IMG/VR virus record: IMGVR_UViG_3300048583_000219
Coordinates: 1 to 59,637 of that record
DNA length: 59,637 nucleotides
Source of the DNA: a virus
Lineage: Duplodnaviria; Caudoviricetes
Direction: 5' to 3' (one strand)
The notes under the pieces were generated by a model. It saw only the letters and a program-made list of their open reading frames with translations. It was not told the DNA's origin and did no database searches. The number at the start of each line of letters is the position of its first letter. Position 1 is the stretch's first letter. The translations under genes were made by a program, and so were the position numbers. This document shows, in pieces, positions 29,341 through 34,443 of the stretch.

Positions 29341-29604
29341 ATGAATCCGGAACTCTACGATCTTCTAACCAAACTATCCGCTATTCAAAAATCCAGGCAA
29401 TACAACTGGAAAAACGGCGATCCAGCCAGCTTGGATCTTGAGGCTGCGCACCAGTTGGAACTTACCGGACTGCGCAAGCGACTCGAAGCATTCTCCCCGA
29501 CCGGACGGGTGGCCGGAACCGAGGAAACCCCCACCGATGGAGCATCAAGCATTAACCGGTGTGGGAGTGCCCCATCGGTGGGATCAACCCTTTGCATGGC
29601 ATGA
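29341..29604 (+). CDS. Hypothetical protein
   Basis: Follows dnaB; ATGA-coupled to the next gene. Confidence 0.45.
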   Translation: MNPELYDLLTKLSAIQKSRQYNWKNGDPASLDLEAAHQLELTGLRKRLEAFSPTGRVAGTEETPTDGASSINRCGSAPSVGSTLCMA

Positions 29605-30041
29605 AACAGACGGTGACATATTTGAGGGAGGGCAGAAAGCTCCGCGCGACCGGCGTGATGGTGGCAAACGCTCCGAAGCAAGGTTTGGTGAAAGTGAAAC
29701 CCCACCGCGAAGATTGGGGGCATGTATGGATCACGCGCGAGGAAATCGCCGCAGGCCAAGGCAAGCCACTGGTTCAATCGCGCAAGCCCGCAAGCGAAAA
29801 CCCAAAGAAAACGCGCAAGCCGCGCGCCAAGAAACAGCCCCCGAAGCCACGCTGGCAACAGTTGATCCATGAGGTGAGAACGCTCGAAATCGAGCACGTT
29901 CCGGATGGGTGGCCGTGCGTGCGGATGCGGACACTCACCGAGCTTGCCAACGAACTCGAAGCGGCGCGGGCCAAACTGGCTGAGTTTCTTCCAGTCAACG
30001 CAGAGCTCTGGCACCGCCGGAGACGGCACACAAATCTATGA
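29601..30041 (+). CDS. Hypothetical protein bordering the cassette array; its C-terminus is encoded by attC1
   Basis: Reads through AGTCAAC as ...LPVN and stops at the ATGA inside attC1. Confidence 0.6.
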   Translation: MKQTVTYLREGRKLRATGVMVANAPKQGLVKVKPHREDWGHVWITREEIAAGQGKPLVQSRKPASENPKKTRKPRAKKQPPKPRWQQLIHEVRTLEIEHVPDGWPCVRMRTLTELANELEAARAKLAEFLPVNAELWHRRRRHTNL

Positions 30042-30122
30042 AACAAGAACCAAACACCGAGGCGGCGGAAACCGTCCAAACCACGAGCGTCCCGGCGGTT
30101 GTCCAGGAGCGACTTGTTGTGC
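29993..30122 (-). other. attC1 (distal end of the array)
   Basis: Plus strand AGTCAAC-gcaga-GCTCTGGCACCGCCGG...CCGGCGGTTGTCCAGGAGC-gactt-GTTGTGC. Confidence 0.8.
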
Positions 30123-30466
30123 CTCTTCCGTGTCCGTTTTGCGGCTATGAAGGAGTGCGAGTGCTGGAGTGCATCCGACTGAGCGTGTCTTGCGACCTGT
30201 GCCGCGGAATCGGGCCTGCTGCCGCCACCAGCCCCGAAGCTATCGAAAAATGGAACCAACGCCCCGCCGAAACGCTCATGTCTATCGACCGCACGCAAAT
30301 GCAGTCCGCGCTTCGAAAACTCGCAACGGCGGAATCGACCGGTGACTGGGGGAAAGATCTTGGGTGCATGCGAGAAATCGCACGCTTGGGGCTTTCTTGG
30401 CACAACGCAATAGGTATGGCAGCGGGAGCCGATGGATCGCCATCGTCAGCCAATGAAAAGCCTTAA
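30038..30466 (+). CDS. Cassette 1: Lar-family restriction-alleviation-like Zn-finger protein
   Basis: LPCPFCG...VSCDLCRGIGP...EAIEKWNQR. Starts in attC1 and stops in attC2. Confidence 0.65.
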   Translation: MKQEPNTEAAETVQTTSVPAVVQERLVVPLPCPFCGYEGVRVLECIRLSVSCDLCRGIGPAAATSPEAIEKWNQRPAETLMSIDRTQMQSALRKLATAESTGDWGKDLGCMREIARLGLSWHNAIGMAAGADGSPSSANEKP

Positions 30467-30494
30467 CCCGATTGCCATCACTCCCTTGTTATGC
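30400..30494 (-). other. attC2
   Basis: GCACAAC...GTTATGC with ATGGCAGCGGG/CCCGATTGCCAT arms. GCACAAC complements the GTTGTGC of attC1. Confidence 0.85.
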
Positions 30495-30517
30495 CTCTTC
30501 CGAATTACCAAACGACT

Positions 30518-30706
30518 ATGAAACCAACGCCAATGACTGCCGAAAGATACCTCGCAATTATCAATGATCTAATCCCGAAAGGCTGGATGCCGATTGGCCA
30601 GTTCGGGTCGATGACGTTCCGCCGAAACGGGAAAAACTACGACCTGTCCGCTGCGGATCTAGGTCAACTCGACCGCATCGAACGCGAGGGATTATTTTTG
30701 GCATAA
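30518..30706 (+). CDS. Cassette 2: small hypothetical protein
   Basis: MKPTPMTAERY...; its stop TAA lies within the GCATAAC core. Confidence 0.55.
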   Translation: MKPTPMTAERYLAIINDLIPKGWMPIGQFGSMTFRRNGKNYDLSAADLGQLDRIEREGLFLA

Positions 30707-30802
30707 CGCTGGGGGTATGGCGCGGGAACTAGCCGCGCAGGACTCAGAATCACCAAACCGCGACAACGGCTAGTTCCCGTTGCCATGACTCCCTTGTTAG
30801 CC
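30701..30802 (-). other. attC3
   Basis: GCATAAC...GGGAACTAGCCG/CGGCTAGTTCCC...GTTAGCC. Confidence 0.88.
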
Positions 30803-30813
30803 TTCTTTGAATT

Positions 30814-31101
30814 ATGACCGACGCACAAATAGCCTTAAAATTCTCGGACGATTACCCCTACGAAATCGACGAAGACACCAACCCTGGAGCGGACCTAAAG
30901 CCCGCCGACTGGGCACATCGTGCCGCCCGTGGAATAATGGCCGACATGAACGACAGGCGCGGGATCAAATGGGAAATCCAAAAGGTCGATATAGACACCC
31001 GGAAGGACATTGTGGCCGCGCTGGCTGCGATTATCCGCTTAGCGCATTCTGAGGCTAACGCAAAAAGTCCATCCGTGGACGAGAAAGGAACGAAACCATG
31101 A
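30814..31101 (+). CDS. Cassette 3: hypothetical phage protein
   Basis: DWAHRAARGIMADMNDRRGIKWE; tail and stop lie in attC4. Confidence 0.65.
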   Translation: MTDAQIALKFSDDYPYEIDEDTNPGADLKPADWAHRAARGIMADMNDRRGIKWEIQKVDIDTRKDIVAALAAIIRLAHSEANAKSPSVDEKGTKP

Positions 31102-31207
31102 AAGGCTGCATACGGTGTCACGGCCCGACCGACCACAAAGGCGACTGCGAGCGGTGCGACCGCGAAAGAACAGCGTCAGGGCCATCGGATGCGACGGCTT
31201 GTTCTCC
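31053..31207 (-). other. attC4 (long; its loop holds an RBS and start codon)
   Basis: GGCTAAC...GTCCATCCGTGG/CCAtCGGATGcGAC...GTTCTCC, with two extrahelical bases. Confidence 0.75.
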
Positions 31208-31403
31208 GTCTTATTCCGCTAGATTTCGACTCGGTCAAGACGCGGTGGAAATCCGCGTGCCGACTGGCGACATGGATAATCCGCACTGCTGGCACGGCCT
31301 CGATCTGCATACCGCAAAACAACTGCGGGACGATCTGTGCAAAGCCATCGACACCCTCGAAGCATTCCAAAATCTGCGCAAAGAGAATCCGGAGAACGCA
31401 TAA
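31098..31403 (+). CDS. Cassette 4: hypothetical protein with a CxxC...CxxC N-terminus encoded in the attC4 loop
   Basis: AAAGGA RBS and ATG 31098 inside attC4; ends ...ENA* in attC5. Confidence 0.55.
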   Translation: MKGCIRCHGPTDHKGDCERCDRERTASGPSDATACSPSYSARFRLGQDAVEIRVPTGDMDNPHCWHGLDLHTAKQLRDDLCKAIDTLEAFQNLRKENPENA

Positions 31404-31478
31404 GCTCATGGACGCCGACCTATTCACTCCGATTCAAGATGGACGCTCCTCGGCGTTCCATGCAGCGCCTGGTTCGGC
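31391..31478 (-). other. attC5
   Basis: GGAGAAC...GCTCATGGACGCCGA/TCGGCGtTCCATGcAGC...GTTCGGC. Confidence 0.85.
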
Positions 31479-32037
31479 GTTGGTGTGCGACGACACTGCT
31501 CCCGGCAAGCCCTATCTGGTGCCAATGACTCTGCGCAAAGCCAATGATTTCGTGGCCGCCCATCATCGCCACAACGGACGCACCGCCCGCAACGGCGGCA
31601 AGTGGTCCGCTGGCGTGGCCGTGGATGGAAAGCTCGTAGGCGTGGCTATCGTCGGAAACCCGCTGTCCGCGACACTGATGGACGGATGGACGGCCGAAGT
31701 GTTGCGCGTCTGCACCATCGAAGACGCACCGAAGGGAACCTGCTCGATGCTGTATCAAGCCTGCTGGCGGGCGTGGCGGGCAATGGGCGGTCGCCGCCTC
31801 ATCACCTACACGCTGCAATCCGAATCCGGCGCAAGCCTGCGAGGTGCCGATTGGCGAGTCGTCGGGCAGACAAAGCCAGTGAAGGACGGATGGCGGAAAA
31901 ACGACCATCTCAACGGAACCCGCACGCACTCGCCCGTCATGCTGGAGGTGAAGAACCGCTGGCAGCAAGATGACGGCTCTTATTCTTCGCCGAACGCAGA
32001 GGTGAGGCACGGCGCGAAGGACCCCGACCTCGACTAG
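31408..32037 (+). CDS. Cassette 5: XF1762/Mom-like GNAT-fold protein (possible DNA modification)
   Basis: ANDFVAAHHRH...GVAIVGNP...AEVLRVC...CSMLY...RAMGGRRLITYTLQSESGASLRGADW. Confidence 0.65.
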   Translation: MDADLFTPIQDGRSSAFHAAPGSALVCDDTAPGKPYLVPMTLRKANDFVAAHHRHNGRTARNGGKWSAGVAVDGKLVGVAIVGNPLSATLMDGWTAEVLRVCTIEDAPKGTCSMLYQACWRAWRAMGGRRLITYTLQSESGASLRGADWRVVGQTKPVKDGWRKNDHLNGTRTHSPVMLEVKNRWQQDDGSYSSPNAEVRHGAKDPDLD

Positions 32038-32074
32038 AAACTTTCCCGCCGTTGCCTCGACCGACTTGTTAGCC
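31989..32074 (-). other. attC6
   Basis: GCCGAAC...GGTGAGGCACGG/CCGtTGCCTCgACC...GTTAGCC, with canonical extrahelical T and G on the plus strand. Confidence 0.9.
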
Positions 32075-32110
32075 GTTCGGGGGACGCGGAAACACCAAAC
32101 AAATACGCAT

Positions 32111-32401
32111 ATGACACCAACCGAAGCCGCTACGGCGGACACAAAACAATGGAGAAAAGACCTCGACGGCGTGCTGCAAAGCATCAAGCGGGGGAGTGAC
32201 ACGAAGCGCGAAGTCCTCACCAGTGAGGATCACCCACGGGCAAGCCGTGAACGCTCGCTGGCCGTGACGAAACTCCAAGAAGCAATCATGTGGCTTGGAA
32301 TGGACCTCAAGGACATCGGGGAAACGCCGAACCCATACCCGCACAGCTACGACCCCGCGTCTCCGGTGATTGAACCGACGGCGGACGGATTGAAGCTGTA
32401 A
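32111..32401 (+). CDS. Cassette 6: Acb2/Tad1-like helical hairpin protein (candidate signalling-nucleotide sponge)
   Basis: SRERSLAVTKLQEAIMWL resembles the Acb2/Tad1-family RExSLAxTKLEEAxxW motif. Confidence 0.6.
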   Translation: MTPTEAATADTKQWRKDLDGVLQSIKRGSDTKREVLTSEDHPRASRERSLAVTKLQEAIMWLGMDLKDIGETPNPYPHSYDPASPVIEPTADGLKL

Positions 32402-32411
32402 ACACCAACCA

Positions 32412-32442
32412 AGCCGGAGAGTGGGTCTTCCATTCTCCGGCT
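32412..32442 (+). other. RNA hairpin after the cassette 6 gene, overlapping the attC7 core
   Basis: AGCCGGAGAGTGG-GTCTT-CCATTCTCCGGCT (13-bp stem, one G-U pair). Confidence 0.55.
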
Positions 32443-32525
32443 AACGCAATAGGTGAGGCACGGCGAGATAAGACGCCGCCTCACGAATAAACTTTCCCGC
32501 CGTTGCCTCGACCGTCTTGTTAGCC
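32439..32525 (-). other. attC7
   Basis: GGCTAAC...GGTGAGGCACGGCG/CGCCGtTGCCTCgACC...GTTAGCC. Confidence 0.9.
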
Positions 32526-32564
32526 GTTCGGGGGACGCGGAAACCACAACAAACCAGAACCAAA

Positions 32565-32771
32565 ATGCAACCATACCTAGACAAAGTATTCGATGAGTTC
32601 CGTGACTTGGAAAACAAGCTGAACGAACTCAGGGACTTCATGGAAAATCCCGAGCAGTGGAGAACAGTGAGTCCTGACAACCAAGAGCGGATGGAAATGC
32701 AGGCGAACGTCATGACGCTGTATCTGCACATCCTGAACAACCGCATCAAAACTTACAGCCCGACCGCATGA
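32565..32771 (+). CDS. Cassette 7 gene A: crAss001_48-like coiled-coil protein
   Basis: LENKLNELRDF...QANVMTLYLHILNNRI pattern. Confidence 0.55.
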   Translation: MQPYLDKVFDEFRDLENKLNELRDFMENPEQWRTVSPDNQERMEMQANVMTLYLHILNNRIKTYSPTA

Positions 32772-32831
32772 AATAATACCGGACCATGTTGGTGACGCCA
32801 CCGATATGGTCCGGGCAACCGCAAAACACCC

Positions 32832-33428
32832 ATGGAAAAAGAAATACAGACTCACGAAAAGAAAACCGATATTCCCGAAGACATGTGGGAAGCCGTCGGC
32901 GCATTACGCGGCGCACTCGCGGACAATCCCTGCGTCATTCTGGACGAGGCCGACCCGGAAGACGGCGACCGGCACTACTTCTTCTCAGACCCCGACTTGT
33001 ATGGGGCCATTCAGGACGTTGTAGAGAACCTGCCGGGGAAAACATTCCAAGGACACAGCTACGTGTCACTCGCGTATGCGCTGATGAAGCATGGAGTAGT
33101 ATGCGAAGCGGCAATCGAAGATTCAACGGCATTCGACAACGGGAAAACGCTGACCGGAATCTGCCGTGCATTCTGCGACCTCCAAGAAGACTCACCCGCA
33201 AAAAACATAATCACCGATAAAGAACGCATGGACTTCCTCGAATCGCTCGGGGATGCGCCTACTGACACCGACCTCCATATTCACCCGGAATGTGTCGCGT
33301 CCTTCAATATCTACCTTCGCGGGAACCGTCACAAGCCGGGCTTGGAGAATAACATTGCAGCACGGCAACACCACGGAATCACCTTCCGGGCGATGATCGA
33401 CGATGCAATTTTTTCGGCTAACCACTGA
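32832..33428 (+). CDS. Cassette 7 gene B: hypothetical protein; stop supplied by attI
   Basis: Ends ...FSANH* through GGCTAAC-CAC-TGA; contains a DKERMDFLE motif. Confidence 0.6.
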   Translation: MEKEIQTHEKKTDIPEDMWEAVGALRGALADNPCVILDEADPEDGDRHYFFSDPDLYGAIQDVVENLPGKTFQGHSYVSLAYALMKHGVVCEAAIEDSTAFDNGKTLTGICRAFCDLQEDSPAKNIITDKERMDFLESLGDAPTDTDLHIHPECVASFNIYLRGNRHKPGLENNIAARQHHGITFRAMIDDAIFSANH

Positions 33429-33450
33429 TTCAACCGCGTGCGCGGTTTTA
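33416..33450 (-). other. attI-like site
   Basis: Minus strand ...GGTTGAATCAGTG-GTTAGCC is a core with no attC hairpin, just upstream of intI. A second GTTRRRY (GTTGAAT) and the palindrome AACCGCG-TG-CGCGGTT lie nearby. Confidence 0.7.
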
Positions 33451-33468
33451 TTCCAAACCCTCAAATTT

Positions 33469-34443
33469 ATGACCAGAACCGAAACCCTCGCCAAATTCGA
33501 TATGATCGCTCGCCGCCGGATTGCTCTGACAACAGAGCGCTCTTATCGGTCATGGATCGTGAAATATCTGTCATTCCTCGGGACGGAAAAGGCCAAGGCA
33601 GCGACGACTTCCGAAGCGAAGATGGAAGTTTTCCTAAGCTCCATGGCTCACGAGGACTATTCGAGTGTCAGCCAGAATCAGGCGTTCAACGCACTTCTGT
33701 TCCTTTACCGCCATGTTCTCAAAATCGAAATTGGAGACGTTTCGGCTTTGCGCTGTCGCAAGAAGCAGAAGGAACGCTATATCCCGACACAGGCGGAAAT
33801 CTCCGCAATGTTCGAGCACCTGAAAAACACTCCGACTTACAACGTCCGCTTGCTGGCGGCTTTGCTCTATGCGTGCGGCTTGCGGGTGCAATCCGGATGC
33901 GAACTTCGCATCAAGGATTTCGACTTGGAACGGATGGTTCTGACAATCCATGAAGACAAGGGGGACAAGGACCGCCAAGTTTCGATTCCGGAATTATTGT
34001 TGCCAGCGCTTCGCCGCCAGATTTCCCGCGCATCGGCCCTTGCCGAAATCGACATTGCAGCGCTGCAACCGGTGCAACTTCCTGGACGTCTCGACCGGAA
34101 ATACCCAGCCAAACAGTTCGAAGTCGGTTGGCACTTCCTGTTTCCGTCTCCTGCACCGTGCGCTCATCCAAGAACCAAGAAAATGGTCCGCTGGTGCATG
34201 GGACCAGACGTGATTCAGCGGGCAATCAAGGATGCGGCAAAACGTGCGGGCATTCCCGGCAAGGTGACTCCTCATTGCCTGCGCCATTCGTTTTGCAGCG
34301 ATCTGTTGGATTCAGGCCACAACCCGCGCCGGGTGCAAGAGGCTATGGGACACGCGGACATTAGGACCACGATGGGATACGCCCGGAAAGACTGCCTGAG
34401 CCTGCCAAGCCCGATTGAAACCATGAAACTTCGTTCCGCATGA
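33469..34443 (+). CDS. intI: Integron integrase
   Basis: SQNQAFNALLFLYRHVL, LLYACGLR, KGDKDR, the IntI-specific insertion VQLPGRLDRKYP...WHFLFPS...HPRT, VTPHCLRHSF, MGHADIRTTMGY and a C-terminal SP. Confidence 0.92.
   Translation: MTRTETLAKFDMIARRRIALTTERSYRSWIVKYLSFLGTEKAKAATTSEAKMEVFLSSMAHEDYSSVSQNQAFNALLFLYRHVLKIEIGDVSALRCRKKQKERYIPTQAEISAMFEHLKNTPTYNVRLLAALLYACGLRVQSGCELRIKDFDLERMVLTIHEDKGDKDRQVSIPELLLPALRRQISRASALAEIDIAALQPVQLPGRLDRKYPAKQFEVGWHFLFPSPAPCAHPRTKKMVRWCMGPDVIQRAIKDAAKRAGIPGKVTPHCLRHSFCSDLLDSGHNPRRVQEAMGHADIRTTMGYARKDCLSLPSPIETMKLRSA

Follow-up and report, generated by a model that had tools for sequence, protein, structure and literature searches.

The usual description of an integron cassette is that of a promoterless, self-contained gene with its own recombination site behind it, and in the defining layout of integrons such genes are read away from attI and expressed from a platform promoter (Pc). 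That layout was not found in the window analyzed here, which is the whole 59,637 nucleotides (nt) of IMGVR_UViG_3300048583_000219 (positions 1 to 59,637; Duplodnaviria, Caudoviricetes). We consider it likely, with a probability of about 0.8, that the segment 29993–34443 of this window is a phage-borne integron with an IntI-type integrase, an adjoining attI and seven cassettes, whose genes are reversed and follow a phase convention that extends through the whole cassette pool. Most of these genes have no stop codon of their own and cross the recombination crossover in one phase, in which its AAC is read as asparagine (Asn).

Parts of this arrangement have counterparts in the literature. In the part of PMC5027507 that treats attC folding, the folded bottom strand is cut between A and C of AAC, on the arm opposite the extrahelical bases, which stand a stem of 6 base pairs (bp) apart, and the spacer measures 5–6 nt. 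The closest printed precedent for a crossover-spanning open reading frame (ORF), going by the relevant part of PMC8876359, is ORF-11 of attI1 in class 1 integrons, which like ORF-18 spans the crossover and receives its in-phase stop from the inserted cassette, a coupling that has been proposed to pass ribosomes to the next start. Short ORFs within attC sites have been proposed to relieve the hairpin barrier to translation and so to help the next cassette (same part of PMC8876359), and translation of an upstream cassette raises downstream expression, as stated in a passage of PMC11511950. In phage genomes, Qi et al. 2023 described attC sites and integron integrases with methyltransferases among the cargo, comprising fragments of host integrons, class 1 integrons and integrase-less clusters (PMC9892861, in part). 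The portion of its main text drawn on here contains nothing on reversed genes, a frame rule or borrowed stops; its supplementary site list could bear on gene orientation. A full-text literature search, which covered articles without their supplementary files, returned no description of reversed, frame-locked cassettes.

The locus resembles integrons, both mobile and sedentary chromosomal ones, in having a probable IntI-type integrase beside attI, attC hairpins with AAC/GTT cores, spacer, bulges and variable loop, a crossover in the AAC of the bottom strand, a circular-permutation signature for each cassette, and cargo that differs fully between related platforms. It differs from them in the orientation of its cassette genes, every one of which is on the strand that recombines and faces attI and the integrase gene, out of reach of a platform promoter, and in being carried by a Verrucomicrobiota phage or prophage whose integrase forms its own clade. 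None of the phages of PMC9892861 is a close relative, and the phage collection yielded no close relative of the integrase (seven records, all below 60% identity). With ORF-11 the locus shares a reading frame that spans the crossover and a stop that comes from another unit; however, ORF-11, in the source cited above, is one short leader ORF in attI with its stop in the core of the inserted cassette, whereas here the cassette genes themselves cross at nearly every junction and find their stop in attI or in the following attC, within its loop or arm. The short attC ORFs and polar effects of the accounts cited above likewise concern separate small ORFs and forward cassettes, in contrast to a fixed phase common to the cassette genes.

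Eight junctions with the core AAC lie upstream of the integrase gene (Table 1). The + strand carries every gene from 29601 to 34443, among them the eight cassette genes and that of the integrase. The initial annotation had proposed that the att sites act as frame-locked translation modules, each supplying an in-frame stop, and the eight stops that it named are the first stops in the frame in which AAC encodes Asn. Six genes cross AAC as Asn with no earlier stop, the Asn being followed by Ala and further residues in genes 29601, 30038, 30814 and 31408, by Ala and the stop in 31098, and by His and the stop in 32832. Sites attC3 and attC7 keep an Asn-frame stop that no present gene uses, because gene 30518–30706 ends in a TAA of the core and gene 32111–32401 stops 42 nt earlier. 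The end LPVN-H-stop that had been reconstructed for gene 29601 at an empty site can likewise be read directly from the sequence.

The same pattern recurs across a curated set of 54 attC sites from this window and 11 related arrays. Sites were called by an arm-only folding search, in which each AAC is assigned a GTT partner, and were curated by hand from the output of a structure filter; a first site finder, based on whole-region folding energy, chose over-long partners and was replaced by arm-only folding. An Asn-frame stop lies between AAC and GTT in 52 of the 54 sites, compared with 28 and 24 for the other two frames, which is the chance level. Dinucleotide-preserving shuffles of the site interiors (n = 2000) gave 29.9 ± 3.5 sites with a stop and a maximum of 41, and none reached 52, so that the stop enrichment called for by the initial annotation is present against both kinds of control. 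The first 37 sites alone give 36/37, and the attC sites of the window 7/7 in the Asn frame, 2/7 in frame 1 and 4/7 in frame 2. The stop is kept in 8/9 sites that currently have no gene using the Asn frame. Clustering at 70% identity leaves 18 clusters, 17 of them with a stop, and within the largest attC cluster the stop occurs anywhere from +6 to +60; its position varies and it is therefore not one inherited codon.

The phase of the genes agrees with that of the stops. Among ORFs of at least 50 codons that reach an attC crossover, 42/49 do so in the Asn phase (binomial p = 5e-14), as do 8/8 of those that reach an attI; left out of this count were two attC and two attI sites without a long ORF and three attC and two attI sites at contig edges. 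The only common alternative to reading through Asn is a TAA built into the core (xTAA/C, where the slash marks the crossover). The Asn-frame observation is confirmed, far beyond chance.

The borders of the units can be read from the cores. At 4/4 variable positions, the inner core is complementary to the far 3′ end of its own unit in 34/37 cassettes (47/52 in the enlarged set), whereas the physically adjacent core is complementary in 2/37 (3/52), and 0/5000 permutations reached the observed mean. Such complementarity between a core and the end of its own unit is the classical mark of units inserted as circles. In the window, for example, the inner core GTTGTGC of attC1 pairs with GCACAAC at 30404, the end of its own cassette.

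Contigs from four metagenome runs break at the same borders. Matching pieces start at 29997, 30705, 31057, 31393–31396, 31990–31993 and 32443, with unlike sequence ahead of the AAC breakpoint, and extend through the 3′ core; they cover 31993–32074 (attC6) and 32443–32524 (attC7), and a piece from run X1 covers 31057–31206, breaking at 31057. The unit 30400–30709, which is attC2 together with the gene after it, is present at 100% identity in run X1 between unlike flanks, and in a contig of run X2 the neighbour of 33422 is an attC1-like site in place of attI. Excision and insertion of cassettes by the integrase, which may still go on in this phage, have indirect evidence in these breakpoints, in the alternative junction and in the different arrays beside similar integrases. 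No cassette is common to the arrays of nine compared loci, whose integrases are 65–93% identical to that of the window (blastn and tblastx gave only attC-to-attC similarity), and C-terminal tails were therefore compared through protein homologues.

Homologues were expected to diverge directly after the Asn, and this was borne out in two families, those of the backbone gene at the distal array end (29601) and of gene 32832. Eight of 12 members of the former share ...KLAEFLP, one or two residues and N, followed by eight different tails that range from a single D to 18 residues; the bare N-D end of one homologue is what an attI-type junction would give. In the latter family ...SPAN is kept in 8/14 homologues and is followed by at least seven different tails. 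A tail of the type AEVRHGAKDxDLD occurs on two of these homologues (P0134 and P0137), and attC6 gives the same type, AEVRHGAKDPDLD, to the unrelated protein of gene 31408–32037. Both findings, a tail shared by unrelated proteins and a variety of tails on one protein, are as swapping predicts, and the divergence in both families supports the earlier claim that shuffling exchanges C-terminal tails.

The sites share one layout. AAC is followed by an unpaired spacer of 5–6 nt and by stems of about 3 bp, 6 bp and at least 5 bp, and single unpaired bases interrupt the 3′ arm only; all 54 sites have AAC/GTT cores, the spacer and a 6-bp stem between two bulges. The 3′ arm has more unpaired bases than the 5′ arm in 50/54, most often two against none. 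Because this bulge geometry matches that of the bottom strand in the part of PMC5027507 cited above, the + strand of the window is predicted to be the folding, recombining "bottom" strand, cut at AA/C, with canonical geometry and unit borders at AA/C. AA/C was chosen over the other core on four grounds: the two halves of attI, the asymmetry of the bulges, the breakpoints of the contigs and the divergence of the tails. The cassette genes are on the recombining strand, which is the reverse of ordinary cassettes. A search of Rfam gave one chance match, below threshold.

The integrase is probably of the integron type. It scores 260.3 bits against TIGR02249, narrowly short of the curated cut-off of 265, and its residues 13–305 align in a single stretch to residues 13–303 of 2a3v (PDB chain name: site-specific recombinase IntI4) with an E value of 5e-43. 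The alignment takes in the stretch around RKYP...W.FLFPS, which we take to be the integron-specific extra segment. The listed relatives form a distinct clade, running from 91% down to 57% identity and then dropping to 45%, where the proteins are named integron integrase by their sources; they come from viral contigs and from Luteolibacter and Haloferula genomes. Within the family of these two genera the integrase was found in 4/401 genomes searched, and the only new genome among them has no upstream DNA.

The right half of attI, from AAC on, is kept beside the integrase gene in 12 loci, whereas the DNA to the left of AAC is unrelated and cassette-specific; the left half of the site is represented by the end of the backbone gene, which is conserved. 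At 33434–33455, and at the same place in the 12 loci, a conserved GC-rich palindrome followed by a T run stands just before the integrase gene. The palindrome may serve the integrase as a binding site or attenuate read-through into its gene, and a simple terminator scan did not flag it.

An ordinary compact operon would be the most serious alternative, with a static row of genes that each have their own stop and a shared phase that stems from descent of duplicated junctions. In compact phage operons a stop codon typically sits slightly ahead of the following start or overlaps it, and the ATGA sequences at 30038 and 31098 are examples; moreover, many of the sites are paralogous (the 54 fall into 18 clusters), and recombination is read from the sequence rather than observed directly. 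Nevertheless, we consider such an operon unlikely. The genes upstream of the sites are mutually unrelated, yet they have a phase common to 42/49; stop positions are many within a single attC cluster and 8/9 unused sites still have a stop; the tails of homologues switch exactly at the Asn; contigs of other samples break at AAC; and the inner core pairs with its unit's own far end in 47/52 units.

Less probable still is the canonical cassette orientation, in which the crossover would be G/TT of the 3′ core on the + strand and each gene would be followed by its own attC and have its own stop. The chain of core complementarity fits this orientation equally well, and the attC of ordinary cassettes commonly overlaps the stop codon, according to a passage of PMC11511950. 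However, the integrase and the conserved attI half are at the right end of the array and conservation breaks at AA/C, the other attI half being the conserved end of the backbone gene; the bulged bases are on the 3′ arm in 50/54 sites, which is bottom-strand geometry; the unit that recurs elsewhere (30400–30709) consists of attC2 and its downstream gene; and homologues diverge right past the Asn, not past the hairpin. Just as improbable is a phase bias that is a by-product of core constraints and of stop avoidance in xxxxAAC, with no selection for termination or coupling: a T before AAC does make TAA in one phase (three genes use such a TAA), and the base after AAC is always G in attC sites, hence the next codon is never a stop, but most cores have G before AAC, which leaves two phases equally open, yet phase 2 was found in 2/49 and phase 0 in 42/49, and core constraints leave the enrichment of stops inside the sites in phase 0 only unexplained.

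A mechanism is proposed for the phage-borne integron with reversed, frame-locked cassettes. The sequence shows a mobile unit that consists of an attC hairpin and then a gene, the 3′ end of which abuts the crossover, and the last 6 nt of the unit are coding sequence and outer core of its own attC at once. Most genes read AA/C as Asn in one fixed phase, with the C from the next unit completing the codon, and the next attC or attI supplies 1–22 residues and the stop. Nearly every attC in the pool and every attI has an Asn-phase stop; any cassette order would therefore end cleanly, with only a short tail changing, and the initial claim to that effect is supported by these near-universal stops. The array is probably read as one polycistronic message from upstream phage promoters. 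Promoter-like sites between 27000 and 35000 were not above chance (2 against 3.2 ± 2.0 in shuffles), and the scan gave no terminator-like site on the + strand within the array (29993–33428).

Ribosomes that enter the 5′ arm may open the next hairpin in the mRNA and pass on to the start codon that follows. Asn-phase stops have a median position of +42 nt, beyond the 5′ arm. An ATG that opens at least 40 codons lies within −6 to +12 nt of this stop in 26/54 sites, and in nine of them the two codons overlap as ATGA, whereas 500 random draws of positions yielded 10.4 ± 3.0 and never more than 18. This proximity makes such a transfer of ribosomes plausible, and the arrangement may have been selected for translation rather than merely tolerated. 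A broader reading, which we offer tentatively and rate a little short of an even chance, is that a large phage-specific cassette pool shares one translational grammar, in which the hairpin would serve as a stop-restart coupler in the mRNA and any cassette could be plugged into a single early operon. In this grammar the hairpin would come first, the gene would exit via AA/C as Asn, and the stop, often with the next start, would lie in the following hairpin; the pool would extend over integrases with 93% to about 32% identity to that of the window, and many of its cassettes would be counter-defence genes. If such a grammar exists, the expression of each cassette depends on translation of the preceding one.

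Several observations weigh against the integron with frame-locked cassettes, or against parts of it. The stop is missing in two of the 54 sites, at L093 10226 and at L026 7425, the latter with a frame that remains open over 123 codons. Seven of the 49 ORFs reach the crossover in other phases, five in phase 1 and two in phase 2, and only three of them, all in phase 1, end in TAA/C. The proximity of stop and start is not specific to the Asn phase, the first stops of the other phases lying near such an ATG in 13/29 and 9/25 cases, and coupling is therefore put forward as a hypothesis. The integrase falls 4.7 bits under the curated TIGR02249 cut-off. Whole-site fold z scores in the window range from −5.4 to −0.14, and for attC1 (z −0.24) and attC4 (z −0.14) the whole-site fold is no stronger than that of shuffled sequence; with an energy of −18.1, the arms of attC4 do not stand out from the background (mean −15.4, 5th percentile −26.1). 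The whole-site z is weak for long sites and was therefore not taken as a criterion, and these two sites are backed instead by arm architecture, core complementarity and contig breakpoints. The core-complementarity rule is symmetric between strands and was therefore not used for the choice of strand. Finally, the sites were curated by hand, many being paralogous (18 clusters at 70% identity), and both recombination and translation are read here from DNA sequence alone. On balance, the interpretation of the att sites as frame-locked translation modules is supported.

The array is listed from left to right in Table 1. The arms of attC1 fold with −30.8 and have their bulges on the 3′ arm, and those of attC5 reach −28.0. 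The DNA fold z is −5.41 for attC3 and −3.04 for attC7, which is 83% identical to attC6. The arms of attC4 comprise 3 bp, a bulge, 6 bp, a bulge and 3 bp, with the core chain holding on both sides, and its loop codes for the N-terminus of the next gene.

Table 1. Features of the array and its surroundings in the window, from the distal end to the integrase gene; the AAC column gives the crossover core and a slash within a core marks the crossover.
Feature	Coordinates	Strand	AAC	GTT	Asn-frame stop	Remarks
Backbone gene, distal array end	29601..30041	+				crosses AAC 29997 as ...LPVN; ends at TGA 30039 within attC1
attC1	29993..30122	+	29997	30116	TGA 30039	stop overlaps ATG 30038 of next gene
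Cassette 1 gene, Lar-like	30038..30466	+				crosses AAC 30404 as SWHN; stop TAA 30464 in attC2
attC2	30400..30494	+	30404	30488	TAA 30464
Cassette 2 gene	30518..30706	+				own TAA, built by core GGCATAA/C
attC3	30701..30802	+	30705	30796	TAG 30771	stop currently unused
Cassette 3 gene	30814..31101	+				crosses AAC 31057 as SEAN; stop TGA 31099
attC4, long site	31053..31207	+	31057	31201	TGA 31099	stop overlaps ATG 31098
Cassette 4 gene, CxxC...CxxC motif	31098..31403	+				crosses AAC 31395 as PEN; stop TAA 31401
attC5	31391..31478	+	31395	31472	TAA 31401	stop 7 nt before ATG 31408
Cassette 5 gene, XF1762 family	31408..32037	+				crosses AAC 31993 as SPN; stop TAG 32035 and C-terminal tail from attC6
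attC6	31989..32074	+	31993	32068	TAG 32035
Cassette 6 gene, Acb2/Tad1 hairpin-domain match	32111..32401	+				own stop, 42 nt before crossover
attC7	32439..32525	+	32443	32519	TAA 32488	stop currently unused
Cassette 7, two genes	32565..33428	+				32565-32771 crAss001_48-like (PF21825); 32832-33428
Cassette 7 second gene	32832..33428	+				crosses AAC 33420 as FSAN; stop TGA 33426 of attI
attI	33416..33460	+	33420		TGA 33426	crossover GGCTAA/C, then conserved right half; TGA two codons past Asn; GC-rich palindrome
Integrase, integron-type tyrosine recombinase	33469..34443	+				downstream of array, co-directional; TIGR02249 match

The cargo between 30038 and 32771 looks like counter-defence genes. 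It includes a match to Lar restriction alleviation in cassette 1 (PF14354, 34.2 bits, cut-off 28.6), an XF1762-family protein in cassette 5 (NF045478, 156.8 bits) and, in cassette 6, an Acb2/Tad1 hairpin-domain match just over its cut-off (PF24729, 29.4 bits, cut-off 27). Profile searches gave no family match for the four other cassette proteins and the backbone-gene product. The 198-residue protein of gene 32832–33428 matches a family of about 120–170 residues (P0133–P0145) only over its first ~118 residues; around 33195–33230 it has SPAKN where most family members end in ...SPAN, and then continues for about 75 more residues, and AACGCA is present within the gene at 33223. The gene has the appearance of a fusion between two cassettes whose intervening attC was lost.

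The layout is also found beside distant integrases, with Asn-frame stops in 11/12 sites at L025 (integrase 43% identical), 6/7 at L028 (38%) and 4/4 at L033 (32%), and a search with the backbone gene gave three further arrays. Arrays L091 (11062–14815) and L093 (9340–12549) have eight and seven sites under the same rules, with no integrase match and no attI motif in the DNA stretch examined; they are either integrase-less clusters or have an integrase beyond that stretch. At L089 2378–3797 and L090 6968–8387, a backbone-gene homologue directly follows an integrase-like gene of 33% identity and has its own stop and no array behind it, which is another arrangement of the same two genes. At L026 7425–7953 (the same record as L004 5425–5953) the open Asn frame continues for 123 codons into the last cassette, while the opposite strand holds a 119-residue ORF that runs across attI; this is either a fusion protein or a cassette whose gene is oriented oppositely. 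At L021 6694–7942, the first site has an inner core that matches the end beside attI, 1.25 kb away, rather than the next predicted site, and one internal pair is an 18-bp perfect inverted repeat with about 190 nt between its copies, so that this may be one multi-gene cassette with decayed internal sites. Inspection by eye of L020 1257–1312 showed a 16-codon ORF right after the stop of a cytosine-methylase-like gene, which crosses in the Asn phase and ends two codons on; this ORF may be due to chance or may be a mini-ORF that leads ribosomes into the hairpin.

In the array described here, coding sequence overlaps the recombination core and a gene takes its stop codon from another mobile unit, which can work only under a reading-frame rule common to all cassettes of the pool. 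The proteins have context-dependent C-terminal tails, and gene callers and integron finders will mis-assign the ends of cassettes in such arrays. The frame rule yields simple predictions that can be tested with reporter constructs and recombination assays. It is a rare case of a sequence convention common to independently moving genes, and it suggests how phages could keep shuffling accessory genes expressed from one operon.

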